Translations under genes and position numbers: made by a program
The notes under the pieces: generated by a model
What the model was told of the DNA's origin: nothing
Databases searched by the model: none
Seen by the model: the letters and a program-made list of their open reading frames with translations, nothing else
Virus record (IMG/VR): IMGVR_UViG_3300005512_000039
Location: 1-57,795 of that record
Origin: a virus
Taxonomy: Duplodnaviria; Caudoviricetes
Reading direction: 5' to 3' (one strand)
Length of the DNA: 57,795 bases
Part shown: positions 1,514 through 55,392 of the stretch, piece after piece
Position numbering within the stretch: position 1 is the first letter of the stretch
Layout: each line of letters starts with the position of its first letter

Positions 1514-1541
1514 CCGTGATCCGCGATCCGTGATCTCTGAT
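1514..1541 (+). repeat. tandem heptamer array CCGYGAT
   Basis: CCGTGAT CCGCGAT CCGTGAT CTCTGAT. Confidence 0.85.
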
Positions 1542-1553
1542 CCTTCTGGTCTG

Positions 1554-1817
1554 TTATTTCCCCCGTCTCCCATGAAGCCAGTCTACTGGCCCGAGGGCCG
1601 CGATCCGTTGGATTTCGCTGACGTGTTCTTGTTTTCGGGAGGGGCCTTGAGGTTTATTTTTCGGGTTTTGCTCGTCGAAGAGTTTTTGTAATTTGTTGAC
1701 GGCTTGTTTGAGTACTTTTTTATTTTCCTCCGAGAGTTTGAGTTGTAATGGTTTGACCACGTCGATGAGCAGTTCGAGTTCTCGTAGGGTGAGGTCTTTG
1801 TGGTAATTTTTTTTCAT
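1554..1817 (-). CDS. hypothetical basic protein
   Basis: 87-aa ORF in early operon. Confidence 0.6.
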   Translation of the reverse strand: MKKNYHKDLTLRELELLIDVVKPLQLKLSEENKKVLKQAVNKLQKLFDEQNPKNKPQGPSRKQEHVSEIQRIAALGPVDWLHGRRGK

Positions 1818-1825
1818 GGTGTTAT

Positions 1826-2026
1826 TTAAACATTTTTTTCGTCTGCTGTGGGCATGACTTCCTCGGCATCGACATCTACTTCCGCAAGGCTCCAGTCTTC
1901 GAACGGGATATTGATTAGGAGTTCACGGCCTTCTCCCACGGCCTCGACGTGATCTTCGGCATCGAGGTACATGGTGTAGGTCATGGTGGCGGTAATTTTA
2001 AATGGTTTTAGTTTTTCGAATTTCAT
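1826..2026 (-). CDS. small acidic protein, DpnD/PcfM-like paralog
   Basis: FKITATMTYTMYLDAEDHVEA pattern; GAGGAGG RBS. Confidence 0.6.
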   Translation of the reverse strand: MKFEKLKPFKITATMTYTMYLDAEDHVEAVGEGRELLINIPFEDWSLAEVDVDAEEVMPTADEKNV

Positions 2027-2184
2027 TCTTCCTCCTCTTTAAAGTCCACTTCATAGCATTCGGCACAAAGGTATCCAATCTCAAAGTCTTGACCGGCGGG
2101 GATTCGGTTGACGAATCGTCCGCTCCCCCACGAGGTGTCTTGTCTGCACTCAAGGCATAGATCGCCCATGTCTTTAACGTTCAT
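2023..2184 (-). CDS. 53-aa Zn-finger protein (not in ORF track)
   Basis: MNVKDMGDLCLECRQDTSWGSGRFVNRIPAGQDFEIGYLCAECYEVDFKEEEE*; two CxxC; ATGA coupling. Confidence 0.7.
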   Translation of the reverse strand: MNVKDMGDLCLECRQDTSWGSGRFVNRIPAGQDFEIGYLCAECYEVDFKEEEE

Positions 2185-2422
2185 AATCCCCCCATACTCT
2201 GGCCTCGGTAGCGGTAATTATTTTCTGATCGATCAACTCGGAGATAGCCTCGTCGCTTCGGCCCGTGGTCAGATATTCGACGAGATGTTGCCGTGGCACG
2301 TGGGCCAAGAGTTCGTATACGTGTTCGAGTTCTTCGTCATCTTCGATACGCTCTAGGGTTTTCCAGATCAGCAAATCTTTATCGTTGCCGAATAGTTCGT
2401 TGGTTAATTTCCATCGGTTCAT
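2174..2422 (-). CDS. hypothetical acidic protein (start corrected to MNRWKL)
   Basis: GAGGAGG RBS before ATG 2422, ATGA coupling. Confidence 0.7.
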   Translation of the reverse strand: MNRWKLTNELFGNDKDLLIWKTLERIEDDEELEHVYELLAHVPRQHLVEYLTTGRSDEAISELIDQKIITATEARVWGDYER

Positions 2423-2574
2423 TCTTCGACCTCCTCTGCGTCTATGGTTACATCTCGTAAATGATCGTCCCAAGCATGATCTTCGGCGGCTATGCGTTCT
2501 GCCTCCTCAAGGCTCTCGGCCTCGATACCGTCGATTCGGTGGTACTGCGTAATGCTTACGTTGTATTTTTTCAT
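2419..2574 (-). CDS. 51-aa DpnD/PcfM-like paralog (not in ORF track)
   Basis: MKKYNVSITQYHRIDGIEAESLEEAERIAAEDHAWDDHLRDVTIDAEEVEE*; GGAGG RBS, ATGA coupling at both ends. Confidence 0.7.
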   Translation of the reverse strand: MKKYNVSITQYHRIDGIEAESLEEAERIAAEDHAWDDHLRDVTIDAEEVEE

Positions 2575-2762
2575 GCCTCAACCTCCGTAACGTAATGATC
2601 GTTTAATAAACCCATCTCGTAGTAATGATCGACATCGGCTTGATCTAAATCTTTGTTATAAAATTTCGCTATTGCTTTTTCCTCTGCTTCTAATTCATTT
2701 TCAGCAGTCACTTCTACCGTGATCGACGCATCTAAAGATAAAGAAACTTCGTATGTTTTCAT
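2571..2762 (-). CDS. DpnD/PcfM-like small acidic protein
   Basis: MKTYEVSLSLDASITVEVTAENELEAEEKA pattern. Confidence 0.65.
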   Translation of the reverse strand: MKTYEVSLSLDASITVEVTAENELEAEEKAIAKFYNKDLDQADVDHYYEMGLLNDHYVTEVEA

Positions 2763-2968
2763 TCGCTAACCTCTGCCACTCGAAAATCGTCGTGGTCATA
2801 GTCTTCTAAGTCTCCACACTCGACGGCATCTCGCAAGTCTTCGAAAAAGTCTTCGAGTTCGCGTTCGGCTTGCTCTCTGGTATCGAAGCTGATGGGCGCA
2901 TCGTTATTGTCTTTCCAAGTGTTGATCCACCCGTCGCACAGAGTGTAGGTTTGTAATTCGTATTTCAT
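2759..2968 (-). CDS. hypothetical acidic early protein
   Basis: 69 aa, AAGGAGG RBS, first gene after promoter. Confidence 0.75.
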   Translation of the reverse strand: MKYELQTYTLCDGWINTWKDNNDAPISFDTREQAERELEDFFEDLRDAVECGDLEDYDHDDFRVAEVSE

Positions 2969-2998
2969 AGTTACCTCCTTTTGTTTAATCGAACTTCG

Positions 2999-3027
2999 AT
3001 TCTGGACTAGGTATGCGAGGTTGTCAA
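2999..3027 (-). promoter_or_regulatory. sigma70 promoter (leftward early operon)
   Basis: minus strand TTGACA-N17-CAGAAT. Confidence 0.65.
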
Positions 3028-3082
3028 CTACTTTTATCGAGTCGGGTCGAATCGACGTTTTTTAGATTGAGTCTAAAATTTA

Positions 3083-3097
3083 TGTTGCACTGCAACA
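3083..3097. promoter_or_regulatory. palindromic operator TGTTGCA-C-TGCAACA (PhaR-box-like)
   Basis: perfect 7-1-7 inverted repeat between divergent promoters. Confidence 0.45.
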
Positions 3098-3111
3098 CAA
3101 TTTAACCCACC

Positions 3112-3124
3112 TAACTTGTTGATT
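3112..3124 (-). promoter_or_regulatory. IHF consensus site
   Basis: minus strand AATCAACAAGTTA = WATCAANNNNTTR. Confidence 0.5.
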
Positions 3125-3144
3125 TAATTAAGAAAAATTAATAG

Positions 3145-3173
3145 TTGACTTTATCTTATATATAGTTTAGACT
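3145..3173 (+). promoter_or_regulatory. sigma70 promoter (rightward)
   Basis: TTGACT-N17-TAGACT. Confidence 0.7.
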
Positions 3174-3233
3174 ATGGGGTGGAAGTGGGGATTTAACTTC
3201 CAACGTTCTTTAACAATTTACACGGAGAAAAAT

Positions 3234-3605
3234 ATGTCAAAAGACAATAGCGATTTTGTTTTGCCTAACGGTTTCTGTTTCCTAGCCGTTACCTTGGGAA
3301 ACTACGGAGTATGGCGAAAGGCCCGCGATCCAATAACAGCGATCCGCGAAGCCTTCAAAGCCAATAGCTCTCGTGGTAAACCTACCCCAATAGCAGTCTA
3401 CTACGGGAAACACGATGAGATCAGCTGTGGCAGTCTTTACGGGGGCCTTAAGTGGAAACAAGACGGCACGGTTCCCGTAGTCGTAGGGCTTTACAAAGTC
3501 ACAACGCATTCGATTAAACCCATGAAACGCGGGGATTTCGGAGAAGATCATCCAGATCAGTTCACTTGGATGAACGATACGATTCAATACATCGAATCGC
3601 ATTAA
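3234..3605 (+). CDS. hypothetical protein, monocistronic (start corrected to MSKDNS)
   Basis: ACACGGAGA RBS, own promoter and terminator. Confidence 0.75.
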   Translation: MSKDNSDFVLPNGFCFLAVTLGNYGVWRKARDPITAIREAFKANSSRGKPTPIAVYYGKHDEISCGSLYGGLKWKQDGTVPVVVGLYKVTTHSIKPMKRGDFGEDHPDQFTWMNDTIQYIESH

Positions 3606-3614
3606 CCACTCAGC

Positions 3615-3637
3615 GGGGGCTTCGGCCCCCTTTTTTT
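3615..3637 (+). terminator. intrinsic terminator
   Basis: GGGGGC-TTCG-GCCCCC followed by T-run. Confidence 0.85.
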
Positions 3638-4925
3638 ATTCCGTGATGGTTCCGGCGGCGATTGTTCGATTATTTTCTTCATCAATAAGGATGAAGGCTC
3701 CGGTGCTTTTATTTTTTTTAAAACGGTCAAATAAAAAAACGTTTTGAGCTTTTATATTGACTTGACCAATTTCATTCATGTTCAGAGTTAAACAAGGTTT
3801 GATTGGCCTTAACGTTTCCATATCAATCCGGTGTTGAATTGATTTTACGCGTATTCGGGTTTCACCACAGGAATGTTTCATAAGGTATGTCCGAGATAAA
3901 TCTAATGGTTTTTCATCAAACCAACACAGTTCAGCCTTGAAGTTGTCCCCTTGAGTCATGGGGGCGGTGACATCGTGAAAAAACATTCCCCTCGACACAT
4001 CAACCTCTTGATCTAAAAATATTGTTACGGACTCCTGAGCGGATACCGATTTAACACAATCTCCCGACGCATTTAGAATACGTGCAACGCTTACTCGATG
4101 TCCTTTCGTTCCAATTAAAACCTCGTCTCCCAAATTAATAACGCCCGAAACGACCAAACCTTGATAACCCCGTAAATCAAGGCCCTCAAAACCAGAGTTT
4201 TTTCGTACATTGTCTCGATTAAGACGCATCACTCTTTGAACTGAAAACCTAAAAGGAAGCGCACTTGAATTATTTGTTAATGGCAGACGTTCTAAATACT
4301 CTAATAAGGTAGGCCCCGCGTACCAGTTCATGTATTCACTTCGAATGGTAACGTTATCCCCTTTAAGTGCAGACACGGGTATTGAATTAACCTGTACGTA
4401 TCCAATAGATACAGCAAGGCGAAAACATTCTTTCGTGATGTCTTGATATGTTTTTTTAGAAAAATTAACTTTATCCATTTTATTGACAGCAAATACCACG
4501 TGGGAAATACCTACCCACCGTGCAAGATATAAATGCCTTCTCGTTTGGTCTTTCACTCCACTCTCGGCATCAATTAAAATAACGACTAGCTCTGCTGAAC
4601 TTGCCGCAGTAACCATGTTTCGGGTGTACTGCACATGACCGGCAGAGTCCCCAACAATAAATTTTCTAGAGGGTGTTGAAAAATAACGATAGGCAACGTC
4701 GATAGTAATACCTTGTTCGCGTTCAGCTAATAGTCCATCCGTAATCAGAGATAAATCAATTTCTTTCATACCGCGTTTTTTCGAGGAAGCTTCAATAGCA
4801 CTTAGCTCATCTATTTGTAAGCTTTTGCTATCAAATAACATTCGACCAATAAGGGTGCTTTTTCCATCATCTACGCTCCCTGCAGTAATAAAACGAAGCA
4901 AACCTGACTCCCCTTTTGCGTTCAT
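3636..4925 (-). CDS. cysN: sulfate adenylyltransferase subunit 1 (GTPase)
   Basis: LRFITAGSVDDGKSTLIGR, DGLLAEREQGITIDVAYRYFST, GHVQYTRNMVT, NKMD, GAFILID motifs. Confidence 0.97.
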   Translation of the reverse strand: MNAKGESGLLRFITAGSVDDGKSTLIGRMLFDSKSLQIDELSAIEASSKKRGMKEIDLSLITDGLLAEREQGITIDVAYRYFSTPSRKFIVGDSAGHVQYTRNMVTAASSAELVVILIDAESGVKDQTRRHLYLARWVGISHVVFAVNKMDKVNFSKKTYQDITKECFRLAVSIGYVQVNSIPVSALKGDNVTIRSEYMNWYAGPTLLEYLERLPLTNNSSALPFRFSVQRVMRLNRDNVRKNSGFEGLDLRGYQGLVVSGVINLGDEVLIGTKGHRVSVARILNASGDCVKSVSAQESVTIFLDQEVDVSRGMFFHDVTAPMTQGDNFKAELCWFDEKPLDLSRTYLMKHSCGETRIRVKSIQHRIDMETLRPIKPCLTLNMNEIGQVNIKAQNVFLFDRFKKNKSTGAFILIDEENNRTIAAGTITE

Positions 4926-5815
4926 TAAAAATAACCTTCCTTTTTTCTTATCTCCATTGATGCTTCGCTTAATTGATCATCTAATCGAGTCGCGCCCCTC
5001 TCTGTGATTTTAGTTTGAGCCGTTTCTAAAATGACTTCCTCAACGTTTTTTGCTCTGGATTCTACGGGGGCAGTACAAGTAATATCTCCCACCGTCCTAA
5101 ACCTCACACTCATTCTTTTTATTTGATCAGATTCTTTTGCGGGAGTAATAGGTGTAACGGGAACTAAAAAATTATTCTTTATAACCACCTCCCTTTCATG
5201 AGCAAAATAAATACTCGGAAGGTTAATCCTTTCACGCTGTACATATTCCCAAACATCTAATTCAGTCCAATTGGATATCGGAAAAACTCGAACGTTTTCT
5301 CCGTCAAAAACTTTGGCGTTATATAAATTCCAAATCTCAGGGCGTTGATTCTTTGGATTCCATTGACCAAATTCATCTCGAAAAGAAAAAATTCTTTCTT
5401 TTGCACGAGCTTTTTCCTCATCCCTTCTAGCACCCCCAATGCAAGCGTCAAAATTATGTTCTGAGATCGCATCCAGTAAGGTTATTGTTTGATACTTATT
5501 TCTTGGTTCCCCCTCGTGTTTTAGATGAACGCGCCCTTGTTTGATAGAATCCCCTACCGATCTTACGACTAAATTTAAATTATTGTCCTTAACAGTTGAA
5601 TCTCGGAAATCAATAACTTCTGGATAGTTATGTTCGGTGTCAATATGAAGTAAGGTAAAAGGTAAGCACTCTGGGAAAAAAGCTTTAAGTCCTAAATGAA
5701 GAACGACGGCAGAATCTTTGCCTCCAGAAAATAATAAAGCCGGATTGTTGCATTCAGCCGCTACTTCTCTAAGTATGTAAATAGCCTCTGACTCAAGTTC
5801 ATCCAAATGCGACAT
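4925..5815 (-). CDS. cysD: sulfate adenylyltransferase subunit 2 (start corrected to MSHLDELESE)
   Basis: LFSGGKDS PP-loop, GGARRDEEKARAKERIFSFRD, RVFPISNWTELDVW, C-terminal SMEIRKKEGYF; TAATG-coupled to cysN. Confidence 0.97.
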   Translation of the reverse strand: MSHLDELESEAIYILREVAAECNNPALLFSGGKDSAVVLHLGLKAFFPECLPFTLLHIDTEHNYPEVIDFRDSTVKDNNLNLVVRSVGDSIKQGRVHLKHEGEPRNKYQTITLLDAISEHNFDACIGGARRDEEKARAKERIFSFRDEFGQWNPKNQRPEIWNLYNAKVFDGENVRVFPISNWTELDVWEYVQRERINLPSIYFAHEREVVIKNNFLVPVTPITPAKESDQIKRMSVRFRTVGDITCTAPVESRAKNVEEVILETAQTKITERGATRLDDQLSEASMEIRKKEGYF

Positions 5816-5820
5816 TAAAA

Positions 5821-6321
5821 TTATTCCTTGTGCGCTTTCAAATACTCTGAAGCGCGAGCCGTGATCCGTGAATCGTCTTTCAGTAGCCCTATGGCGTGGT
5901 TGCACGGACGGCAAAGCAGTCCTCGAACCTTGTTGGTCGAGTGATCGTGGTCTACTGCCATGCGGTAGACGAGTTGCGCTTGGTGTATCCCGCAGATCGC
6001 GCATTGGTAGTTTTGATTTTTGAGCATCGCTTTAAAGTCCTCGAAGGTGATGCCGTACTTGAGAACGAGTTTGCTGTCCTCGACGTTCTTATGAATTTTG
6101 TTTCTAGGGGCAAAGGCGGGGCACTCACGGGCCATGTAATTTTTCTTAATCGAACGGCCTTGTTGCTCGTGTGTTCTCCCGCAGTGTTTACATCGACCGA
6201 TCCACTTCGAGGGTTGTCCAAGGGCAAAGACAACAACGTGATCGTTCTCTTGCCAGAGTAAATCTATGCGTGGCTTACGACTTCTTGTTTCGTGGGCCAA
6301 TGACTGATTCGGGGTTGACAT
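5821..6321 (-). CDS. endonuclease VII-family HNH nuclease (probable homing endonuclease)
   Basis: KYGIT...QNYQCAIC...AVDHDHSTNKVRGLLCRPCNHAIGLLKDD. Confidence 0.9.
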   Translation of the reverse strand: MSTPNQSLAHETRSRKPRIDLLWQENDHVVVFALGQPSKWIGRCKHCGRTHEQQGRSIKKNYMARECPAFAPRNKIHKNVEDSKLVLKYGITFEDFKAMLKNQNYQCAICGIHQAQLVYRMAVDHDHSTNKVRGLLCRPCNHAIGLLKDDSRITARASEYLKAHKE

Positions 6322-6328
6322 CGATTAA
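6267..6328. repeat. 62-bp perfect direct repeat, copy 1
   Basis: TGCGTGGCTTACGACTTCTTGTTTCGTGGGCCAATGACTGATTCGGGGTTGACATCGATTAA, identical at 6990-7051. Confidence 0.97.
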
Positions 6329-6340
6329 AATCATCTTCCG

Positions 6341-6937
6341 TCATGTGTTCTTCTTTTTTTTTATATTCCATGTTGGTGTGTAAAATGTTGATAGCTTAGT
6401 GTTTGGTATTTTTTTTGCGTATATCATTTTTTTATTTGTTGAAACACGTTCTGATTTGTTAGCAAGTCCTTTATGTGTTTTAGTACTACCCATTGTTTCA
6501 CCTAAATAAACCCAATTATCAGCTAGATATAATGTACCTTTACGATAATCTTCTTCTACAACAAAAGTTTCAAACCCATGTACTTTTACTTTATATCTTT
6601 CTTCCCAATCAAACGATATTCTTTTACGCCAACGCGACAAAACAAACGTAGCTAAATTAGGAATGTGTTTTTCTAATCTGAATACGGTGTTGTTTATTAT
6701 TGAAGGTAAAGCTACTTTTTTGTTGTCTTTAGTTAAACCAAAATAATTATCCCTTGTTTTAACCGCCCACACTGAACTAGCACCACTTATTATCCCAATA
6801 ACATTGGAGTCTAAATTAATAATATAGTGAAGTTGTTGTCCATGAGTTCCTTTGTTAGGTACATAATGTCTATTACGAATATTTTGATAAACTGGATCAG
6901 TTCTTTTACAACGAATAAGTTCTATATTAAAAGTCAT
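6341..6937 (-). CDS. DUF4338/Druantia DruA-like (Mom/GNAT-related) protein
   Basis: RHY, RDNYFG, IINNTVF, PNLATFVL, DWEERY, ETFV, GTLYLADNWVYLGETMG motif series; visibly AT-rich. Confidence 0.7.
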   Translation of the reverse strand: MTFNIELIRCKRTDPVYQNIRNRHYVPNKGTHGQQLHYIINLDSNVIGIISGASSVWAVKTRDNYFGLTKDNKKVALPSIINNTVFRLEKHIPNLATFVLSRWRKRISFDWEERYKVKVHGFETFVVEEDYRKGTLYLADNWVYLGETMGSTKTHKGLANKSERVSTNKKMIYAKKIPNTKLSTFYTPTWNIKKKKNT

Positions 6938-6989
6938 AGGTCATCACACTAATTGTCCCCCTGATTTAAGTAAGTCTCCACCAAATACG

Positions 6990-7051
6990 TGCGTGGCTTA
7001 CGACTTCTTGTTTCGTGGGCCAATGACTGATTCGGGGTTGACATCGATTAA
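6990..7051. repeat. 62-bp perfect direct repeat, copy 2 (3' end of xseB)
   Basis: identical to 6267-6328. Confidence 0.97.
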
Positions 7052-7246
7052 GCTGTTGGTTTTCTTATCATACACTTGGATTTGTTGCTGAACGTTTTTT
7101 AATTCTATATCGCAAAAGTTAATCAGCTCCATTCCCTTTTTGTACAAGGCTAAGGCTTCGGATAGCGGTAGATCGTCCTCTTCCATTCGGGTAACACACC
7201 CCTCCAGTTCTTTTAAATTTGCTTCGAACGGTTTTTGTTTACTCAT
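6998..7246 (-). CDS. xseB: exodeoxyribonuclease VII small subunit
   Basis: FEANLKELEGCVTRMEEDDLPLSEALALYKKGMELINFCDIELKNVQQQI matches the XseB pattern. Confidence 0.9.
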   Translation of the reverse strand: MSKQKPFEANLKELEGCVTRMEEDDLPLSEALALYKKGMELINFCDIELKNVQQQIQVYDKKTNSLIDVNPESVIGPRNKKS

Positions 7247-7367: not shown

Positions 7368-7372
7368 TGAGG

Positions 7373-7881: not shown

Positions 7882-8162
7882 TGTAACGGTTCGTCATCAG
7901 GGTTCTTATAAACCCCTTGTAACTTATCTACATTTTCAGATGCCGCAGACAGACAAGAGGCCAGTATGCCTAACGCTTGGCCCGAGGTCCGTGAGCCGAT
8001 AAACAATTGCGTAAGCATTTGTGTCAACGATCCGGCAACTGCGGCGGTCTGGGAAATACCCGACAGATTTAAAGTTTTTAACAATTCTGCGGTTTCGCTT
8101 GCCGCGAAAAAGAATTCTTTTTCTTCATCGGACAAGTCCTCATCAAAATCCTCTAGATCCAT
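7878..8162 (-). CDS. hypothetical protein
   Basis: 94-aa ORF in operon. Confidence 0.7.
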   Translation of the reverse strand: MDLEDFDEDLSDEEKEFFFAASETAELLKTLNLSGISQTAAVAGSLTQMLTQLFIGSRTSGQALGILASCLSAASENVDKLQGVYKNPDDEPLH

Positions 8163-11458: not shown

Positions 11459-11669
11459 TATTCCTCCAGAGTTTTAAATGTTTTTCTTTAAGAATTATTA
11501 AACTGTTCCAAAGCATTTTCATGTCAACCATTGCATTCATGGCGTGTTTTTCCGCTTGAAAATACTCTCTTTTATTTACACAGTCGGCTATCAGCTTAAA
11601 TTCTTTTTGTGCTTTTAAATAAAACTCAGCGTAGTCCACATCTTTTTCTTCAGACTTCATCATTTTCAA
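11445..11669 (-). CDS. hypothetical protein
   Basis: ~72-aa ORF in replication operon, GAGG RBS. Confidence 0.65.
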   Translation of the reverse strand: MKMMKSEEKDVDYAEFYLKAQKEFKLIADCVNKREYFQAEKHAMNAMVDMKMLWNSLIILKEKHLKLWRNNEQG

Positions 11670-11817
11670 TCGCTTCCTCTTTTGGTTTAAAAACTAATAC
11701 GAATGCTTTACACGAAGGACAACTTAAATTTGTTTCTATTTCAAAAATATCATCCTCTTCGTCAATGTCATGATCGCCGCCCCAAATCAATTCATGATTA
11801 CAATACCAACAGTTCAT
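11650..11817 (-). CDS. 55-aa Zn-ribbon protein (not in ORF track)
   Basis: MNCWYCNHELIWGGDHD...NLSCPSCKAFV; ATGA overlap with helicase stop. Confidence 0.8.
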   Translation of the reverse strand: MNCWYCNHELIWGGDHDIDEEDDIFEIETNLSCPSCKAFVLVFKPKEEAIENDEV

Positions 11818-13331: not shown

Positions 13332-13482
13332 CCACCAATCCTTCTTTGTATTTGTTCACGATCTGTCGAACGCGCTCTTTAGTTAGGCCATATCGTTTAC
13401 CAATTGCAGTCAGAGTTCGATACTCATTAACGTGCATTTGATACATGTCTTTGGCTCTTTTGTCATAATCTAAATCGCTCAA
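13288..13482 (-). CDS. sigma70 region-4-like HTH protein
   Basis: TLTAIGKRYGLTKERVRQI. Confidence 0.85.
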   Translation of the reverse strand: MSDLDYDKRAKDMYQMHVNEYRTLTAIGKRYGLTKERVRQIVNKYKEGLVDVQDIRTSGNREDN

Positions 13483-16500: not shown

Positions 16501-16517
16501 TAGCCAAAAGGAAAAAA

Positions 16518-40423: not shown

Positions 40424-40594
40424 TTAGGTTGCCTTAACTAACTTATACCCTTTTGCTTTAGCCTTTGCGCGAAGCTCTGCAACGCTCATGCCGTTAGTAG
40501 CCTCACCACCTTTTTTCATTTTCTTAACCATACCGCCGCCGCGCATTTTCTTAACCATACCGCCGCCGCGCATTTTCTTAGGTGACATCGCCAT
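40424..40594 (-). CDS. 56-aa very basic protein with MxxGG repeats (not in ORF track)
   Basis: MAMSPKKMRGGGMVKKMRGGGMVKKMKKGGEATNGMSVAELRAKAKAKGYKLVKAT*; AGGAG RBS. Confidence 0.85.
   Translation of the reverse strand: MAMSPKKMRGGGMVKKMRGGGMVKKMKKGGEATNGMSVAELRAKAKAKGYKLVKAT
40517..40580. repeat. 27-bp tandem repeat (2.4 copies), in frame
   Basis: CATTTTCTTAACCATACCGCCGCCGCG x2 + CATTTTCTTA. Confidence 0.95.
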
Positions 40595-49797: not shown

Positions 49798-49946
49798 TTC
49801 ATGCGATTAATCATATCAAAAAGAGTTTTTACTTTGTCTTCTAATATTTTAACCCTAACTGTAATTTCCGCTCTAAAAGCTACACCTATTGCAGCCACAG
49901 CGATAAGACCAGATATCACCGGCCAAAAATCCATAAAACTTTCCAT
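49794..49946 (-). CDS. 50-aa membrane-anchored coiled-coil protein (not in ORF track)
   Basis: MESFMDFWPVISGLIAVAAIGVAFRAEITVRVKILEDKVKTLFDMINRMK*; coupled to portal stop. Confidence 0.75.
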   Translation of the reverse strand: MESFMDFWPVISGLIAVAAIGVAFRAEITVRVKILEDKVKTLFDMINRMK

Positions 49947-52399
49947 TACTGTGACCTTTGTTTAAGTAATTCACGCTCCATAGCAGATTGTATTCTAGCA
50001 GCAGTTTGAGATTCTTGTGATTGAAGCCGTTGCTGGAACTGATCTTTTCGAGCCTGAAGAGCTTGAGCATCTAACTGAAGCTTCTGAGCATCTAACTGAG
50101 CATCGTTCTGTTCCGCCTGAGCTTTGAGCTGTAATTCAGTTTCTTTCAACTTGACTAACGGATCAGGCTGACCTGCTCCAGATAGCTGTCCAGACAACTG
50201 TTTAACTTGTTGCAGACCTTCAGCCACGTACTGTGCCACTAATTGCTCCATTTGAAGCATTTCATCTTCAGGGCTTATAGACATACCTTGTTGCTGCGCT
50301 TGTTGCCGCTGTTGACTATAGGCCACTATAGCCTGTTCTTGAGCCGCAATCTTTACGTGCTCCATAACGTGTTTCTGTAATGACATTGCAACCGGCGGCA
50401 AGGACCCGACCATTGGACTTGAACCAAAAACCAAGTGCGCCGTAATGTGCGCTTGATGATTCTGGCCTTCAAAAGCTTTAAGCTCAAGCATCTCCAAAGA
50501 ATTTATATTTTCCTGAGCAGGGTCAATAGGTACTGGCTCCTCATCAGGAACCGATTTCATAATCCTATCTACATCCGTAACACCCAAAGCTTCATACATG
50601 TCACGATAAACCTCGTGCATGTTGTGTAATTCCGGTGCAGCACCCGCAAGTTGTAATTTGGTTTGCGCCAACACTATGCGTTGCGCCTGACTAAAAGCAT
50701 TCGGATTGCTTACCGGAATCACGTCTACTCTATCATCAAAATCTTCGCGCATGATAGTTGACTCTTCTCCGGCAACAGAGTATGGATATTCTTGCGGTAA
50801 ACTTTCAGACATCACCCTAGACAGGATCTTGAACTCCTGACGCATAGCGTAATGCAAACGCTTGTGCACCGCGCTCATCACCCTAGAGCCTTGCTCCATC
50901 ATCGCAATCGTAGTACCTACCGCCGCATTCTGATTACCATCACCAACCTTTAAATCAGTAATCGTTGCAAACCTTTGCCCCGCCTGAACAACAAATCCCA
51001 ATAACTGGAACAAAGTTGGATCAGGACCCTTAAACGGTAAAGGCATGAGGGAGTCACGGATGGCACCGCCCGGAGCGTCCACATCTCTAAATTCACCGGG
51101 CTGGAGTGGATCGTCATCGTCTCGGATACGAAGTCCACGGGCTTTAAATCCCGCAGGCAGATTGGACAGAGTACCCGCATCGATTAATTGCCTCAACGCA
51201 GCAGTAGCCGTCCGTGACAAACCGCCAATGGTATGAATAAGACCTAAACCATAAAAACCAAAACCAGGTAAAAACTTGAAGTGCGTGAAATATTGTATCT
51301 TCCGCTTCTTCTCGTCATCTTCCCTATAGTTACGTCTTATGGATAAAATCTGACCATTATCCTGTGAAATAGTTACAACGTAAGGAACCTTAATTCCTAA
51401 AGGCTCCCCCTCGTCATCAACCTCTTCGTATCCCTCTAAATCTAAATCAACATGGCATTCGAGCAACGTACAGTCATAATCAATCTGCGAAGGCTCTACT
51501 CCATCAATCTTATCTATCTCTTCAGAAACACCATCCATTGCAGACTGCGCCGGAATAACCGGTATATCCAAATAAAAACCTGCAACCTGTTTCTTTCTTA
51601 AATCATTCAAACTAATCCGAAACGACTGCGTCACATTAGGACATGTGTCCAAATCCGCCGTCTCATACGGAACCACTAAATTCTCTGCCGGAACAAACTT
51701 GGATACCGCACGACCCATCGTCTCGTCATAATACGTCTTCTTAAACGTAGAACCCGCCAGCGGCAAATAAAACAACATCTGATCCATGTCAGGCGTGTAA
51801 TCCTCCATCACATTCGTGACGTAGTAATTCATAAACTGCTTTACACGCTGCGCCTGATTAACCTTTTCTCGCGTCTCTTTGCCCATGACCACAGTCCGAA
51901 CAGGACCAGAAGCCGGTAATAATTCGTTAAACGCCTGCGCCTGAAACTGCGTAGCAGCCTCGGCTAACAATGGATGTGTCACGGCCGACGCTCCACGGAA
52001 AGGTTGCGTCCTCTCTTCATACGTAAATCCAAGAAGCTCTAGACCATTTGCATACGCCTCTTCCCATTCCTGACGACCAGCCTTGTTTGCATCAAACTCA
52101 TCAAGCAGCTCTCCTGCAATCCGGCGCAACTCTCGATCTGGAATGTTTTCTGCTAAGTTGGCATAAAAATCATCTTCCATGCCACGCTCGTCCATCGGCT
52201 CAAAATCTATCGTAACGCCGCCATCTTCTTCTTGTTCTATCTCAATCTCGCCTACATTTTCCGCTTCGATCATCGCCTGGACCGTGTTCCGTGAGCCGGG
52301 AAGCTCTAACTCCAGTTCAGCGTCCAAGTCCTCCATGTCGATCTGAGACGGAACCGCATTTTCCATGAACGTTCCAAAACCTTTTTTAGCCTGTGCCAT
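49946..52399 (-). CDS. portal protein
   Basis: 817 aa after TerL; HPLLAEAATQFQA, LRQLIDAGTLSNLPAG, Gln-rich barrel C-terminus. Confidence 0.92.
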   Translation of the reverse strand: MAQAKKGFGTFMENAVPSQIDMEDLDAELELELPGSRNTVQAMIEAENVGEIEIEQEEDGGVTIDFEPMDERGMEDDFYANLAENIPDRELRRIAGELLDEFDANKAGRQEWEEAYANGLELLGFTYEERTQPFRGASAVTHPLLAEAATQFQAQAFNELLPASGPVRTVVMGKETREKVNQAQRVKQFMNYYVTNVMEDYTPDMDQMLFYLPLAGSTFKKTYYDETMGRAVSKFVPAENLVVPYETADLDTCPNVTQSFRISLNDLRKKQVAGFYLDIPVIPAQSAMDGVSEEIDKIDGVEPSQIDYDCTLLECHVDLDLEGYEEVDDEGEPLGIKVPYVVTISQDNGQILSIRRNYREDDEKKRKIQYFTHFKFLPGFGFYGLGLIHTIGGLSRTATAALRQLIDAGTLSNLPAGFKARGLRIRDDDDPLQPGEFRDVDAPGGAIRDSLMPLPFKGPDPTLFQLLGFVVQAGQRFATITDLKVGDGNQNAAVGTTIAMMEQGSRVMSAVHKRLHYAMRQEFKILSRVMSESLPQEYPYSVAGEESTIMREDFDDRVDVIPVSNPNAFSQAQRIVLAQTKLQLAGAAPELHNMHEVYRDMYEALGVTDVDRIMKSVPDEEPVPIDPAQENINSLEMLELKAFEGQNHQAHITAHLVFGSSPMVGSLPPVAMSLQKHVMEHVKIAAQEQAIVAYSQQRQQAQQQGMSISPEDEMLQMEQLVAQYVAEGLQQVKQLSGQLSGAGQPDPLVKLKETELQLKAQAEQNDAQLDAQKLQLDAQALQARKDQFQQRLQSQESQTAARIQSAMERELLKQRSQ

Positions 52400-52438
52400 A
52401 AACGAGCCCTTAGATAGTATTAGCGCAATTATACTAGA

Positions 52439-53893
52439 TTAGTAATATACCCTTACTCTAGCAGAAGTTTCATCATTTTCCCAACTATCCGTCGGTAATT
52501 GAACAAAATTTCCTTGACGATAACGCATTAAAGCCTGTGTCATACTGTCCACCAAGTCGTCGTATTCGCCATTTGGAAAGGCCGCAACCTCCTCAATCAA
52601 CTCGTCCGCGAATAATTCGTCGGGGGCCCAGACCATTCCAGCCTCAAATAACGGCGAAACACTATGTACCCTCGAAACTTTATCGTTACCTTTACTCGGT
52701 GTGAAGTTTACAACCGGTATGCCCATGTTCCGTAGCTCGTGGGTCAAGGGCAAACCACTCGCCTTCGCCTCAACAATGACGGTGTCGGGGTCCCAGAACT
52801 TATAATTATCCAAAGCCACCTCCTTTAGCTCTGGAAAGTCCCATCGACCCTTCTTACTATCCAATAAAATCAGGTTAGGTTGCCCCGTTTCGTTAGGATA
52901 AAACACACCCCACGTCGTAATAGCCGAGAAATCCGACGTTTCGCGCTTGGTAAACGCCGTATCGTAACTCTGGATCACAAATTGTAAGTTAGGAACCGCC
53001 TTTTTTTCCCATTTATTCCACCACTCGCGTGGAATAATCGCGTTTTCCTCACCCGTAGGGTTCTGCTGGTACTGTGCATTCCATTTGCTAGGCGGAATCG
53101 ACGCTTTTACCGAAGTCAGGTCCTCCAAACTCCAATATTCCGGCCAACACGGTTTACCGTCATCAAATATAGCCGGTAATTCCACGACTTCCCACTGATC
53201 GGCCAACGGATCTTTAGCCATCGCCCTCAATAACTGACCCGTCATGTCCTTCTCCGACCACCGAGTCTGCACCAATACAATACTCCCACCCGGCTGGAGC
53301 CTCTGACGGGGACCCCCAGTGTACCAATCCCACGCATCATCAAATCCACTGACACTCATCGCCGTTTGCTCCGAGTGCGGATCGTCAATAATCACCAAAT
53401 CGCCACCACGACCAGCCAGGTTAGAACCTACACCCACCGCGTAGTACATCCCACCCTTGCTCGTGTCCCAACGGCCCGAAGCCTTACTGTCCGCGGCCAA
53501 CTGTACTTCAGGAAAAATCTCCTTGTACTCGTCACTATCAATTAAATTCTTCGTCTTACGCCCAAAGTTAACCGCCAACTCAGTCGTGTGCGTCGCCTGA
53601 ATAATTTTCATCTTCGGGTTCTTGCCCATCATCCACGCAGGAAACAAATACGACGCAAACTCAGACTTCGTGTGCCGTGGGGCCATGTTAATGATCAATC
53701 TCTTTAACTCACCCTTGGCCACCCGCTCCAACTTCTCTGCAATAATCTTATGGTGCCGACCCGCAATAAAGTCAGGCCATACAGTACGAACAAATCCAAT
53801 AAAATTATTTTGTGAGAACTCGTTCTTCTCAATCTGCGCTAAACGCAATCGAAGCTTTAGCTCCCTATCGTTAGCGTTTAAATCTACATCCAT
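52439..53893 (-). CDS. terL: terminase large subunit
   Basis: MAPRHTKS Walker A, IIDDPH Walker B, QTRW, SYDTA, VEAKASG, DDLVDS nuclease. Confidence 0.97.
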   Translation of the reverse strand: MDVDLNANDRELKLRLRLAQIEKNEFSQNNFIGFVRTVWPDFIAGRHHKIIAEKLERVAKGELKRLIINMAPRHTKSEFASYLFPAWMMGKNPKMKIIQATHTTELAVNFGRKTKNLIDSDEYKEIFPEVQLAADSKASGRWDTSKGGMYYAVGVGSNLAGRGGDLVIIDDPHSEQTAMSVSGFDDAWDWYTGGPRQRLQPGGSIVLVQTRWSEKDMTGQLLRAMAKDPLADQWEVVELPAIFDDGKPCWPEYWSLEDLTSVKASIPPSKWNAQYQQNPTGEENAIIPREWWNKWEKKAVPNLQFVIQSYDTAFTKRETSDFSAITTWGVFYPNETGQPNLILLDSKKGRWDFPELKEVALDNYKFWDPDTVIVEAKASGLPLTHELRNMGIPVVNFTPSKGNDKVSRVHSVSPLFEAGMVWAPDELFADELIEEVAAFPNGEYDDLVDSMTQALMRYRQGNFVQLPTDSWENDETSARVRVYY

Positions 53894-53937
53894 CGGGGGA
53901 CCCTGTAAAAATTATAAAAAACGCCTATGCAAAACGC

Positions 53938-54429
53938 CTATGTTTCACGTGAAACATTCAATATCAAATCCAATATCCTGTCCCAGTCAACCGCACCATC
54001 AGATCGATACACCGGCTTAAACTTCAATCCGTCAAACTTTAAATCCATCGCCTCCGAACCCCGATACAACGATATCGACTCCGGTGTGGGCTTCTTGGTC
54101 CGTGTGCCGCGGTCCGCGATCCGCAGGACAAGAACCCATGTACTCGCATGCTTATGACGACTCAACCAAGATACTTGATGCGGTCTCAAATCAACCGCAT
54201 TCGTCATCGTTGCTTTTAATTCGACAAAGTGAAAATTACCCGATTCATCACACAACACCACGTCCGGTACACCGGGCATGGCCCACGTTTCAAGGCGTGT
54301 GTGTTCTATCTTCTTCTTGCTCTTCTCCAAGGCTGTCTTCATCGTTTTCCACAGACCGCTCTCCCTCTTCAGGGCTGTCCTCGGAATCGGCTTCTCGTTC
54401 TGGAGTAACATCAATCGTGATCGGGGCAT
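53938..54429 (-). CDS. PD-(D/E)xK nuclease (VRR-NUC/Holliday-junction resolvase-like)
   Basis: ESGLW...RLE...PGVPDV...FVELK...LRPHQVSW; start uncertain. Confidence 0.85.
   Translation of the reverse strand: MPRSRLMLLQNEKPIPRTALKRESGLWKTMKTALEKSKKKIEHTRLETWAMPGVPDVVLCDESGNFHFVELKATMTNAVDLRPHQVSWLSRHKHASTWVLVLRIADRGTRTKKPTPESISLYRGSEAMDLKFDGLKFKPVYRSDGAVDWDRILDLILNVSRET
53941..53956. promoter_or_regulatory. parS site (perfect consensus)
   Basis: TGTTTCACGTGAAACA, extends to 18-bp palindrome 53940-53957. Confidence 0.85.
54100..54127 (+). repeat. tandem heptamer array
   Basis: CCGTGTG CCGCGGT CCGCGAT CCGCAGG. Confidence 0.8.
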
Positions 54430-54985
54430 AACCTTCCTTTATCTCTTCTAGGGCTTTCAATACATCTTCTTTAGACATCGAATCAATAGAACCATGTCTG
54501 ATTTCAGATTTGTTGATATATATGTCTCCGTGGGCCTGGCCACGTCGGTACTCAGCCTGAACGGCAGCGGAATACGCCCCGTTTTCCAAGGCTCGATCTC
54601 GGATAATCTGCAGATCCCTTATGTGGCGCTTGTAATCAATACCATATTTGTGATCAAGCTCGTCCCGATAAGCTTTGATATGCCTAACGACATGCGGACA
54701 AATCTGAGGATTAGTCAGTTCATATGCTCTTTGGTGCGCCGATCCTGCCGAATATCCCGCATTGATCGCAGCCTGACGTAATGTTATTTGCCCATCCTTA
54801 GTCACTAACTCTTTGACAAACAATTCTTGTTTTCTAGTCAAGGGTTGTTCTTTCAAAGCCTTGTTCCGTTTAGGAAGGTTCCTAATCGTTTTCTCTTTGA
54901 TCCTAGATATTTTTTTACTTTCTAATTTTTTATGTTCTTTATTGTAAGCGGCCAAGGCTGCTCTTAAGTCACTGGTTGTGGGCAT
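54290..54985 (-). CDS. terS: terminase small subunit (start corrected to MPTTSD)
   Basis: LTRKQELFV...QAAINAGYS HTH, SAAVQAEYRRG; upstream of terL. Confidence 0.85.
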   Translation of the reverse strand: MPTTSDLRAALAAYNKEHKKLESKKISRIKEKTIRNLPKRNKALKEQPLTRKQELFVKELVTKDGQITLRQAAINAGYSAGSAHQRAYELTNPQICPHVVRHIKAYRDELDHKYGIDYKRHIRDLQIIRDRALENGAYSAAVQAEYRRGQAHGDIYINKSEIRHGSIDSMSKEDVLKALEEIKEGYAPITIDVTPEREADSEDSPEEGERSVENDEDSLGEEQEEDRTHTP

Positions 54986-55335
54986 TCTTTTCTCTATTAA
55001 TTGATATGGGAATATATGCGCTAAATTATAAAATTTATAAATTTTTTTGCAAGTAAAACATGATATGAAATTTTTGACAAATATTCGTGAAAAACATGGC
55101 CCTTGCACCCGGTGACAGCGACGTGGGTCTGTGGGCATGGTGCAGCGCAACACGAATCGCGGATATCGAGCAGATGACCCGATAAACAGGGGCCCCGAGC
55201 GATTTTGCATTGCCATATGACCGCTGCCGATTCGATCCACGGCCCGCGAAAAATGGCCCGTGCTCTAGGATGAACTAGGAAGCGCGCCACGGCACGCAAA
55301 CGATTGCGGATATGGTTACCTAGTACGGATCGATT

Positions 55336-55392
55336 TAAACGGGCCACGGGCCACGGGCCACGGCTTACGGTACGTTTGAGACGGGCCACGGG
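55336..55392 (-). repeat. tandem heptamer array, inverted orientation
   Basis: minus strand CCGTGGC CCGTCTC AAACGTA CCGTAAG CCGTGGC CCGTGGC CCGTGGC CCGTTTA. Confidence 0.9.

Follow-up and report, generated by a model that had tools for sequence, protein, structure and literature searches.

Polar seven-nucleotide repeat arrays converging beside the terminase genes look like an undescribed DNA signal in a marine phage and its relatives

The genome of a marine phage related to the HTVC023P-type podovirus carries short tandem arrays of a heptad, a CCGYG core followed by two free bases (NN), in a strict 7-bp register, and the arrays, their strand polarity and their position relative to the large terminase gene (terL) are conserved in its family, so that they look like an undescribed DNA signal. 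We analyzed the whole 57,795-nt stretch of this viral record (hereafter the window) and its relatives. The reading we prefer, at a probability of roughly 35%, is that the heptads are unit sites for cooperative protein binding, with arrows converging on the start of packaging or the genome end, and that the small terminase (TerS) of SF6 type is the candidate reader.

A first-pass annotation of the window had quoted heptamers at 17 places, and all 17 were found when the sequence was read. We call an array strict when it has at least two adjacent CCGYG units and relaxed when it combines one CCGYG unit with YCG/ACG or CCGNN units. Eight + strand sites are strict (1514, 5859, 8331, 13013, 26918, 27404, 52282 and 54100) and six are relaxed (1591, 7982, 11995, 16564, 17313 and 17579). 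They are given here with the element that precedes them.

1242–1509, no strand assigned: origin-like or control element, two 51-nt inverted arms flanking ~170 bp
1514–1534, + strand: x3 array CCGTGAT CCGCGAT CCGTGAT and a degenerate fourth unit, abutting the origin-like element, with a x3 array at the same edge in relatives
1591–1611, + strand: relaxed array CCGAGGG CCGCGAT CCGTTGG
5852–5879, + strand: array GCGCGAG CCGTGAT CCGTGAA TCGTCTT, within a CysD-like gene
7982–8002, + strand: relaxed array CCGAGGT CCGTGAG CCGATAA
8331–8344, + strand: x2 array CCGTGTC CCGTGGT
11995–12008, + strand: array CCGTGGA TCGTGGA, at the 3' end of a helicase gene and 180 nt upstream of the small gene 11650–11817
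13013–13033, + strand: x3 array CCGTGGA CCGTGTG CCGTTAA, in a variable linker of the helicase gene 11814–13331
16564–16591, + strand: x4 relaxed array ACGTGAT CCGTGAT TCGTGGG CCGCGAA, 70 nt into a + strand SNF2-type helicase gene
17313–17326, + strand: weak pair CCGTTGT CCGTGGA
17579–17599, + strand: relaxed array CCGTGAT ACGTTAT CCGAAAA
26918–26931, + strand: x2 array CCGTGGA CCGTGCT
27404–27417, + strand: x2 array CCGCGGT CCGTGCT
52282–52302, + strand: x3 array CCGTGTT CCGTGAG CCGGGAA, ~100 nt into the portal gene
54100–54127, + strand: x4 array CCGTGTG CCGCGGT CCGCGAT CCGCAGG, between terS and terL, within ORF 53938–54429

The window contains CCGYG 100 times on the + strand and 56 times on the − strand. 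Pairs within 18 nt of each other are spaced by 7 nt (n = 10) or 14 nt (n = 4) and by no other distance on the + strand, and by 7 nt (n = 3), 14 nt (n = 2), 13 nt (n = 1) or 16 nt (n = 1) on the − strand. As controls, 500 synonymous-codon shuffles and 500 codon permutations were made. The ten + strand copies of CCGYGNNCCGYG compare with means of 0.15 and 0.06, respectively, and ten was reached by none of the 500 shuffles of either type; the triple CCG-N4 occurs seven times on the + strand against 0.45 in shuffled sequence (0/500 reach seven). When all 5-mers were scanned without bias at spacings of 5–12, CCGTG at spacing 7 ranked first in the window, with 7 pairs against 0.07 expected. The arrays are therefore real, the + strand enrichment withstands codon-preserving shuffles, and the restriction of + strand pairs to 7 or 14 nt, together with this excess (10 vs 0.15), fits cooperative binding at a fixed step. 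All three − strand cases of the CCGYGNNCCGYG type lie within 55336–55398, in non-coding DNA that precedes terS and terL, where an ORF (55304–55441, +) wrongly included in the gene list inflated the − strand expectation of the synonymous shuffle. An extra strict − strand pair at 19027–19040 is not conserved in relatives. Lone − strand CCGYG is at chance level (56 observed vs 53.5 shuffled), so that the single copies at ~551 and ~56925, which had been taken as part of the signal, carry no weight.

The heptad core is held where the protein sequence does not require it. In relative L163, third-codon positions within the cores of four arrays are identical in 18 of 18 cases vs 1232 of 2456 elsewhere (p = 7e-6), and the figures for L162, also from four arrays, are 15/15 vs 886/1880. 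Because core bases are held at synonymous sites, these alignments show that selection acts on the core at the DNA level. At the 13013 array, all 15 core positions are preserved in relatives whose flanks are 62–74% identical, and the NN positions vary freely. The core is fixed and NN variable in relatives at any codon position, and thus, as the annotation had held, the 7-nt period is not a codon effect. Conservation also extends to the 11995 array (10/10 aligning relatives, 11 compared), to units 1–3 of the 16564 array (11/11 relatives at 73–89% nucleotide identity) and to unit 1 and the register of the 17579 array (8/10 aligning relatives, 11 compared); L204 and L159 have a T-to-C change there that still gives CCGYG, and L161 has lost it. 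A x3 array is found in relatives ~60 nt upstream of the homologue of the small gene 11650–11817, despite the different genome location of that gene. The portal-gene array is found at the equivalent place in the close relative L046, and the 54100 array is also present in L103. The weak sites 17313, 14320 and 15479 show no conservation; the 17313 pair is absent from relatives at 73–75% identity and so is probably not under the constraint that acts on the other arrays.

On the − strand, the heptads are gathered in a single cluster near the terminase genes, with the following surroundings.

55523–55542, − strand: terminator-like hairpin with a T run, a consensus match only, which closes the preceding block of genes immediately ahead of the cluster
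55231–55398, − strand: heptad cluster, comprising 55336–55370, 55378–55398 and looser CCGTG/CCGCG units down to 55231
55025–55052, − strand: sigma-70-like promoter match (TTGCAA, 16 nt, TATAAT; 10/12), a consensus match only
54290–54982, − strand: small terminase (TerS) of SF6/SPP1 type (phrog_51 at 3.3e-10), candidate heptad reader
52439–53893, − strand: large terminase (TerL; phrog_38 at 3.3e-106), which anchors the cluster position in relatives

The array at 55336–55370 has five units, three of them perfect CCGTGGC, and that at 55378–55398 has three. The cluster reads in the direction of terS and terL and lies in non-coding DNA between the terminator-like hairpin and the promoter-like site, which follows the cluster and precedes the terS ATG by 43 nt; the cluster therefore probably works as DNA and not as mRNA. 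Natural variants and junctions were taken from contigs of four sequencing runs, which cannot show molecule ends. Contigs from three of the runs join 53960/53965 directly to 55079/55082, which makes the terS-plus-nuclease block a movable insert that separates the cluster from terL. In the 54100 array, contig variants affect one NN position (54105) and one core position (54109).

The arrays are a family trait. Among 120 viral contigs retrieved by the DNA pattern alone, 85 had protein matches to the source phage, and the other 35 were unrelated contigs with mostly single microsatellite-like runs. Family clusters, with up to 14 units, lie just upstream of terL on its sense strand: between −400 and +1500 of the terL start, 53 arrays are sense and one is antisense (76 oriented family loci). 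Away from the clusters, arrays have two to four units and are mostly on the opposite strand, with 22 antisense vs 4 sense strict arrays outside the cluster in six complete genomes, and 61 antisense and 11 sense arrays in the flanks of 80 helicase-centred loci. The polarity proposed from the window thus recurs in relatives. It is also independent of gene orientation, since the 16564 array is sense to its host helicase gene, yet keeps the genome-wide direction in 11/11 relatives. As the cluster and the dispersed sites are opposed, all arrows converge just downstream of the cluster, and this geometry beside the terminase genes, also proposed earlier, is repeated across the family. The position of the cluster upstream of terL is kept both with an adjacent terS, as in the window, L103 and L046, and with terS 4–6 kb away, as in other relatives. 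The CCGTG core is common to relatives with GC contents from 0.35 to 0.61; the cluster of a sister clade is built of GCTTGNN, and in the HTVC027P clade two heptad sequences occur together in one genome. HTVC023P and 023Pt_psg01 have no CCGYG pairs and no clear heptad cluster, though a TerS homologue is present.

On the reading we prefer, each heptad would be the unit site of a sequence-specific DNA-binding protein that binds cooperatively with a 7-bp step, so that at least two units in exact register would make a functional site. A single large cluster occupies the non-coding gap ahead of the terminase genes, and many opposed sites of two to four units overlie coding DNA. The convergence point would be the packaging start and hence the physical genome end, and the cluster would be a pac-type recognition region read by a ring-shaped SF6-type TerS, one HTH per heptad. 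The dispersed sites may be copies of this recognition unit that serve as polar marks for a directional transaction on the DNA, with its start or end at the convergence point, either guiding a translocating machine or protecting the DNA behind the cut. The tie of the cluster to the terminase genes, the polarity and the SF6/SPP1 type of TerS count for a role in packaging. The listed terS ORF extends to 55240, with the ATG at 54982 as its likely start. TerS was aligned with its homologues (36 in the alignment). It matches Pfam Terminase_2 (1.9e-5, short of the curated cut-off) and the PDB sequences 3zqp, 4zc3 and 2cmp at E ~0.03; its structural model (pLDDT 78) has 3zqq and 4zc3 as best fold matches (TMt 0.69, Foldseek E 0.05–0.2).

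Several observations count against this reading. Conserved reversed sites within genes do not follow from a pac model, in which their role is an add-on, and natural contigs differ at one core position of the 54100 array. Against TerS as the reader stand its distance of 4–6 kb from the cluster in relatives and its presence in HTVC023P and 023Pt_psg01, which have no CCGYG pairs and no clear heptad cluster. Near-identical recognition helices belong to L025, with CCGTG arrays, L327, with GCTTG clusters, and L065, with both, and so the helix does not track the heptad sequence. In addition, the SF6 TerS domain showed weak binding to its own pac repeats, with no preference for their sequence (PMC4737164; reviewed in PMC9611059).

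The candidates offered by the annotation (primase or helicase loading, Chi- or KOPS-like sites, a packaging signal) still cover the live hypotheses. Replication signals come second, although we consider them unlikely. The element at 1242–1534 would then be an origin, the heptads would be preferred loading or priming sites for the AEP primase and the helicases on the lagging-strand template of both arms, and the cluster would secure priming near the end of the short arm. The 51-nt arms of the element carry TATATATATA, CCCTCC and A/T tracts, and the ~170 bp between them contain direct and inverted GTAAC repeats. Relatives share the layout (x3 array, A/T-tract inverted repeat and three GTAAC-type iterons), there upstream of the terS gene, so that the element is a conserved module, and in the window and relatives the x3 array abuts it. 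Ten of the 14 dispersed arrays lie in the replication and early region (1.5–17.6 kb) and none in 27.4–52.2 kb, which makes a replication role fit at least as well as packaging. Primase, two helicases and DNA polymerase are family core genes, and the polarity is mirror-symmetric about the module and independent of transcription. There are precedents: the primase-helicase of phage P4 binds short repeats that lie in two cis regions separated by ~4.5 kb, and the pRN1 primase requires GTG in the template. However, the origin status of the element is an assumption, and the placement of the heptad on the lagging-strand template holds only under the assumed origin and fork directions. The implied arms are unequal (~5 kb vs ~53 kb), only two arrays occur across the ~35 kb of the structural half, the block from the element to the cluster is almost free of arrays, and the largest array set is tied to terL and not to the origin-like module. 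A true divergence of polarity at the element, as had been claimed, is not seen: from 55.4 kb to 1.25 kb there are no − strand arrays except the cluster, the single copies being chance. Known primase sites, of 3–5 nt, need no tandem register, and the GCTTG motif of the sister clade lacks GTG.

Third, and doubtful, is an omega-like transcription regulator, a phage repressor or insulator polymerising on heptads that would serve as operators or polar roadblocks. The cluster would shield the late operon from read-through of the upstream block, and the reversed sites would target leftward (antisense) transcription or adjust individual genes. The format is that of omega operators, which PMC9499535 describes as 7-bp non-palindromic units, at least two of them needed and 7–10 present in main sites. 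The terminator-like and promoter-like sites around the cluster, arrays ~60 nt upstream of the small gene and, in L071, an array at the start codon of a gene for an exonuclease-like protein also suit a regulator, as does the position of the x3 array ~20–30 bp from a possible leftward promoter, a TATATATA arm of the inverted repeat. However, the arrays are mostly deep within genes, the helicase-gene array would block its own gene, and known operator sets lack a uniform genome-wide polarity. No small regulator is conserved across the four complete relatives. Neither the RHH protein that the annotation named as a possible binder nor an omega-like protein was found among the 39 window proteins in a Pfam scan (E ≤ 0.01) or among 76 proteins compared with PHROGs.

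Chi-like protection is less probable again. Here, CRCGG, the core on the complementary strand, would be read by a host AddAB/RecBCD nuclease entering at DNA ends, with the cluster protecting one end and the dispersed sites the other. For ends at the convergence point this predicts the geometry observed, one orientation beside one end and the opposite elsewhere, independent of transcription, in conserved sites overprinted on genes. Known Chi sites are GC-rich, of 5–8 nt (e.g. AGCGG in B. subtilis), and are better recognised in tandem copies. They need no fixed register, whereas the pairs here are exactly 7 or 14 nt apart; the same CCGTG core occurs across GC contents of 0.35 to 0.61, probably in different hosts, and one genome of the HTVC027P clade has two heptad sequences. 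That the arrays have no function, as by-products of composition, protein repeats or replication slippage, is close to refuted by the shuffles (0/500) and by synonymous-site conservation limited to core positions; a 7-nt slip would also break the reading frame within a gene, and placement and polarity are repeated across 85 related contigs, although the microsatellite-like runs of the 35 unrelated contigs and the unconserved weak sites allow for chance or slippage in places.

Among known systems, the omega/ParB RHH protein of pSM19035 is a solved precedent, close in format: one dimer binds per 7-bp unit, weakly on one and tightly on two, and arrays have 7–10 units of 5'-WATCACW-3' with the main sites in non-coding control regions (PMC9499535). 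Both systems use non-palindromic 7-bp units in exact head-to-tail register (PMC9499535), and some heptads of the phage read ATCACGG on the other strand. They differ in that the phage core is CRCGG with no RHH protein among the 39 window proteins, and that omega sites mix orientations within an array and overlap promoters, with no spread of one polarity over coding DNA. The pac regions of SPP1 and SF6 also have direct repeats beside the terminase genes and a TerS of equal structural type (PMC4737164), and SF6 TerS could not be shown to bind its boxes specifically (PMC9611059, PMC4737164). The SPP1 boxes, in contrast, are few and do not form 7-bp tandem arrays, and they extend over the promoter and the start of the terS gene, whereas the phage family has up to 14 units, a terS that may be 4–6 kb away and scattered reversed copies.

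KOPS (read by FtsK) and Chi (read by RecBCD/AddAB) are single oriented words of 5–8 nt at any spacing, overprinted on genes and independent of transcription; KOPS arrows converge on dif, and Chi orientation is set relative to DNA ends. The phage arrays are likewise short, oriented, overprinted on genes and converging on one site, but seem to need at least two units in 7-bp register and include one big cluster; PHROG and Pfam scans of the window proteins found no FtsK-like protein. The T7 genome paper reportedly describes imperfect 7-bp repeats (SRL/SRR) in non-coding DNA beside the terminal repeats and concatemer junction. T7, too, is a podovirus in which almost every gene points the same way and 7-bp repeats lie in non-coding DNA; its heptamer arrays are, to our knowledge, confined to the ends, and we know of no genome-wide reversed copies there, whereas the present family has them. 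In phage P4, the alpha primase-helicase binds octamer repeats at ori and crr, so that, as in the present phage, two cis regions a few kb apart share one short repeat, there read by a replication protein; the P4 octamer has neither a strict tandem register nor polar dispersal, and its primase belongs to another family.

The heptamers reported by the first-pass annotation are present at all of the places it had named, as judged by direct reading of the sequence. We call the 7-bp unit, a CCGYG core followed by two free bases, a heptad, and two or more units in register an array. Fourteen plus-strand sites had been proposed as arrays; eight of these hold as strict arrays (at least two adjacent CCGYG units) and the other six in a relaxed form (one CCGYG with near-variants). 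The window holds 100 plus-strand and 56 minus-strand copies of CCGYG. Among plus-strand pairs less than 19 nt apart, 10 are spaced by 7 nt and 4 by 14 nt, and no other spacing occurs. The expected enrichment over codon-preserving shuffles was borne out: tandem CCGYGNNCCGYG was observed 10 times against 0.15 expected, a number reached by none of 500 synonymous-codon shuffles, and the expectation under codon permutation was 0.06. An unbiased scan of all 5-mers and spacings ranked CCGTG at spacing 7 first in the window. On the minus strand there are three tandems, all within 55336-55398, in the large heptad set upstream of terL (hereafter the cluster). Lone minus-strand copies at ~551 and ~56925 had also been counted as part of the pattern, and these proved meaningless because single CCGYG words on that strand number 56 against 53.5 expected. 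Array length is 2-5 units in the window and reaches 14 in relatives. Chance or slippage as their source is essentially excluded.

The window, a complete virus record of 57,795 bp, is a tailed phage with almost every gene on the minus strand (PHROG and Pfam scans). The genes referred to below, assigned by the same scans, are:

9257-11155: family A DNA polymerase
11814-13331: SF1 helicase
13479-15026: AEP primase
16494-17966, plus strand: SNF2-type helicase
49946-52399, minus strand: portal
52439-53893, minus strand: large terminase (terL)
54290-54982, minus strand: small terminase (terS)

Head, tail and lysis genes and two very large proteins were also found. The closest named kin are the Pelagibacter phages HTVC027P and HTVC023P, phage 023Pt_psg01 and the metagenome-assembled phage DSL-LC04, and by these nearest relatives the window is a member or neighbour of the HTVC023P-type group. 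Elsewhere in the window, a CysN-like GTPase (GTP_EFTU, 1.5e-38; 3636-6004, minus strand) and a CysD-like PAPS_reduct protein (4e-42; 6341-6937, minus strand) adjoin and together resemble a sulfate adenylyltransferase pair that the phage carries as an auxiliary metabolic gene; they are followed by a DruA-like protein (2.7e-20) and an exonuclease VII small-subunit-like protein (6998-7246). A direct repeat of 62-69 bp (6260-6328 and 6983-7051, 96-100% identical), which contains TTGACA and a TTTCGTGGGCC stretch, lies at the 3' ends of two adjacent genes. A perfect 27-bp tandem duplication (40517-40570) within the gene for a small basic protein yields the peptide KKMRGGGMV twice.

A pattern scan for CCGTGNNCCGTGNNCCGTG over 2.9 million viral contigs returned at least 120 loci. 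Among the 120 listed, 85 match window proteins (tblastn, E ≤ 1e-5), and TerS was matched in 58, TerL in 33 and the DNA polymerase in 26. The GC content of the 85 family loci spans 0.35 to 0.61, and many of them contain several additional arrays; in one (L097), 13 kb hold 14 array sites, and perfect CCGTGGC units alone number 14. The remaining 35 listed loci mostly contain a single microsatellite-like run. With 85 of the 120 listed pattern matches in the family, the heptads offer a simple sequence marker for it. Two of the related loci (L042 3549-5981 and L120 582-3014) encode a large terminase of 810 aa, in which ~330 extra residues interrupt the window-like sequence; this insert resembles an intein that includes a homing-endonuclease part. 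Term searches of PMC10149686, PMC9599517 and a preprint, which deal with HTVC023P-type and CRP-901-type phages, turned up no reference to the arrays, and full-text literature searches returned no relevant report of phage heptamer repeats with packaging or of the literal array strings. A conserved cis-signal across this phage group has no earlier report in the literature searched.

The cores are conserved beyond what the encoded proteins demand. The 13013 array sits in a poorly conserved helicase linker whose flanks are 62-74% identical at the nucleotide level in relatives, and in those relatives all 15 core positions are unchanged, while the free positions vary (TC, CC, AA; CA, AA, CT, AT) and the encoded residues vary too. 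Over the arrays at 11995, 13013, 16564 and 17579, third-codon positions within cores are identical in 18/18 cases in one relative (L163) against 1232/2456 elsewhere (p=7e-6), in 15/15 against 886/1880 in a second (L162), and in 17-18/18 against 62-69% in three closer relatives, with a weaker result of 15/18 against 56% in L161; these relatives are not mutually independent. Neither of the control CCG-N4-CCG pairs that lack YG (14320, 15479) is conserved, relatives at 73-75% identity have lost the weak 17313 pair, and a stray minus-strand pair at 19027 varies among relatives. Selection acts at the DNA level on the heptad cores. Even if the reader is a primase, nuclease or regulator, the heptads are a rare strong DNA-level constraint overprinted on phage genes.

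For the analysis of polarity, 76 family loci were oriented by gene direction (9 mixed-hit loci were left out), and arrays were scored as sense or antisense relative to that direction. From -400 to +1500 of the terL start, 53 arrays are sense and 1 is antisense. Elsewhere in these loci 100 are antisense and 49 sense, and on inspection many of the 49 are the terL-upstream cluster in loci that end before terL. Strict arrays outside the cluster are antisense in 22 cases versus 4 sense across six complete genomes (the window, the four related genomes G001-G004 and DSL-LC04). Four of the five complete relatives have the cluster 250-600 bp upstream of terL; G003 has none, and no convincing ORF was found between cluster and terL in relatives. 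The strand switch proposed from the window recurs: in the window and in the same four genomes, the cluster faces dispersed arrays just downstream of it. Contigs frequently end at clusters, which we put down to assembly breaks at repeats rather than to physical ends.

Is this polarity tied to transcription? The 16564 array lies 70 nt inside the plus-strand helicase gene and is gene-sense, yet it follows the orientation of the genome as a whole. In 11/11 relatives its first three units are unchanged, five synonymous third positions included. Arrays in the flanks of 80 loci centred on this helicase divide into 61 antisense and 11 sense. Strict arrays within an oppositely oriented helicase gene number 2 in the 80 loci, both in the global orientation, and two loci (L037, L092) each have one array at the 5' part of the helicase gene, within it or close by, in the opposite, local-antisense orientation; these strict-array counts are too small to decide between a global and a transcription-tied polarity. 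The better evidence is the conserved relaxed array at 16564, and by it the polarity is not set by transcription.

Three-unit arrays are conserved at two more positions. One sits at the edge of a non-coding module of 450-700 bp that carries inverted A/T-tract arms together with three GTAAC-, GGTACC- or CCTAG-type iterons and that we call origin-like; the module precedes terS in relatives, and the window copy is 1242-1534. The other is found in relatives ~60 nt upstream of a small gene whose homologue in the window is 11650-11817.

The window cluster is flanked by two consensus matches:

55542-55523: terminator-like hairpin, closing the upstream gene block
55052-55025: sigma-70-like promoter match, 43 nt before the terS ATG

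In gene direction, the hairpin is followed by an A/T-rich palindrome, heptads at 55398-55336, looser units to 55231 and then the promoter match. If both matches are real, the cluster between them would lie outside any major mRNA and act as DNA. It is ~350-400 bp upstream of the terS ATG in the window, whose lineage has terS and a nuclease-like PD-(D/E)XK-like ORF between cluster and terL. In relatives, terS is found 4-6 kb upstream, beside the origin-like module, and the cluster remains with terL. Contigs of three public runs join 53960/53965 to 55079/55082, with 14-18 other letters at the joint, so the 1.1-kb block between (53960-55082, terS plus the PD-(D/E)XK-like ORF) is present in some genomes and absent in others. 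The heptad copy number of the cluster shows no clear change in contigs of four public runs, and begin/end pile-ups are absent from those contigs, which cannot show molecule ends. In one related locus (L108 3557-3718), the non-coding gap between cluster and terL holds a 15-bp tandem repeat that reads as NEHRV repeats in one frame.

Two sets of repeated ends were noted. G004 has an end overlap of 4367 bp (1-4367 / 63629-67995, 99.9% identical). One limit lies just beyond the cluster, 151 bp upstream of terL, and the other at the poly-A tract of the origin-like region. The overlap may be a long terminal repeat or, equally, an assembly path halted at two difficult sequences, and we set it aside as evidence. 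The final 173 bp of the window (57623-57795) resemble positions 256-426 at 97% identity, and positions 1-255 are unmatched at the opposite end. The ends do not form a clean circular overlap; the repeat may come from strain variants or from an assembly join within the stretch from the origin-like element to the cluster.

The unit itself varies between lineages. HTVC027P, a cultured phage, has no CCGYG pairs. Its GCTTGNN units, 21 in all, fall into five arrays at 16.5-17.7 kb, placed between its terS, which is divergently oriented, and the block that leads to terL. A scan for GCTTG triples returned at least 120 loci, with an HTVC027P-type TerS in 88 of the 120 listed. Several HTVC027P-clade genomes carry both forms, with GCTTG units clustered on the terL side of terS and an antisense CCGTG array of three to four units on its other side, and CCGCTGG units are mixed into the clusters of G002 and G004. 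No such arrays were found in HTVC023P, 023Pt_psg01 or CRP-901. With up to 14 identical 7-bp units near a putative pac and the natural variants CCGTGNN and GCTTGNN, the system would be a clean substrate for binding studies and cryo-EM.

A cooperative protein with a 7-bp step would select just these features: the 7-bp register, at least two units and free bases at positions 6-7. The uniform polarity, with arrows converging just downstream of the cluster, suggests a directional DNA process starting or ending beside the terminase genes. We rank a link to packaging first, at a probability of roughly 0.35. The cluster would be the recognition region for pac or a terminus, TerS would read the heptads, and the dispersed, reversed sites would be polar marks. 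How small terminases recognize viral DNA is acknowledged as an open problem in a review (PMC9611059). The terS product aligns well with 35 homologues and matches Terminase_2 (Pfam, below cut-off) and phrog_51. The SF6 TerS DNA-binding domain is matched by sequence at E about 0.03 (PDB), and the predicted model (pLDDT 78) gives 3zqq and 4zc3 as top fold matches (TMt 0.69 over the DNA-binding domain, Foldseek E 0.05-0.2). These scores are individually weak to moderate; the TerS is of the SF6/SPP1 type. The packaging-linked reading is weakened by the reversed sites, which no known pac system would predict, and by the lack of covariation between TerS and the unit. In terms of best matches, GCTTG occurs with an HTVC027P-type TerS in 88 loci, CCGTG with a window-type TerS in 46 and CCGTG with an HTVC027P-type TerS in 7, and the recognition helix has neither a consistent specificity residue nor clean covariation with heptad type. 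Being confounded by phylogeny and lacking a specificity residue, this comparison speaks neither for nor against TerS. Whichever protein reads them, the arrays give a predicted location for genome ends or the packaging start in uncultured genomes.

A bolder and doubtful version is a polar genome-architecture code of a new kind in the most abundant marine phage group, in which a ring or filament formed by a single phage protein would read tandem 7-bp words. The words would be overprinted on genes at synonymous cost with their arrows pointing genome-wide to the packaging site, and TerS or a partner translocase would use them to find pac, pick the packaging direction or protect the cut end. If true, this would be the first natural substrate with its own cognate unit for each HTH of a TerS ring.

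Other readers were sought among the proteins. The non-structural proteins common to all four complete relatives compared are the polymerase, two helicases, AEP primase, two Pam3 gp33/gp34-like proteins, TerL and TerS, and no small DNA-binding protein is common to the four (E ≤ 1e-3). PDB sequence searches with the primase and two core proteins gave nothing useful. A 64-aa protein between primase and helicase (13288-13482, minus strand) has a sigma-70 region-4-type HTH (5.1e-6), and its counterpart in DSL-LC04 carries a sigma-factor annotation; the protein is one more candidate DNA binder. Candidate readers also include the AEP primase and the core proteins at 15060-15842 and 15842-16423.

Replication signals are a doubtful alternative, favoured by the origin-like module and by the density of arrays in replication genes. 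Origin iterons cluster at an origin beside an A/T-rich unwinding region and are bound by the initiator; here a three-unit array borders an element that has A/T tracts and GTAAC iterons, and the main cluster is 4-6 kb off beside terL. Slightly less probable is an omega-like regulator or polar roadblock, which draws support from the heptad format and the terminator-promoter context of the cluster. Omega-type RHH operators and parS likewise consist of contiguous, non-palindromic 7-bp repeats in exact register, and omega/ParB of pSM19035, as described in PMC9499535, is a worked example of cooperative binding with a 7-bp step. The omega unit is WATCACW, whereas the complementary strand here reads NNCRCGG, so that ATCAC is shared only when NN is AT. 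The ribbon-helix-helix protein encoded in omega systems has no counterpart in our scans: no RHH, Omega_Repress, Arc, MetJ or CopG family was detected among 39 window proteins (Pfam, E ≤ 0.01) or 76 proteins (PHROGs), although a small divergent RHH can escape such scans. Chi-like protection is unlikelier still. Chi is read by the host RecBCD or AddAB and is over-represented and skewed in the host genome. The geometry fits, with heptads in the orientation expected relative to a putative DNA end, but Chi is a single word active at any spacing and heptads are enriched in the 7-nt register only. RNA-level roles (translational repressor, antiterminator) fit many arrays 70-300 nt past start codons and were rejected because the helicase-gene array and the untranscribed-looking position of the cluster do not fit. 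G-quadruplex formation, possible for some units (GCCACGG repeats) and not for most, was dropped.

With respect to packaging, a known arrangement is the pac of SPP1/SF6, where repeats at the terS promoter and start flank the first terminase cut. Here the cluster is ~350-400 bp upstream of the terS ATG in the window, and in relatives with terS 4-6 kb off it stays with terL. PHROG and Pfam scans found no FtsK-type translocase with a sequence-reading domain, so a KOPS-like role would fall to TerL or the SNF2-type helicase. In KOPS the arrows of both arms converge on one processing site, and the arrays here likewise converge on a point just downstream of the cluster.
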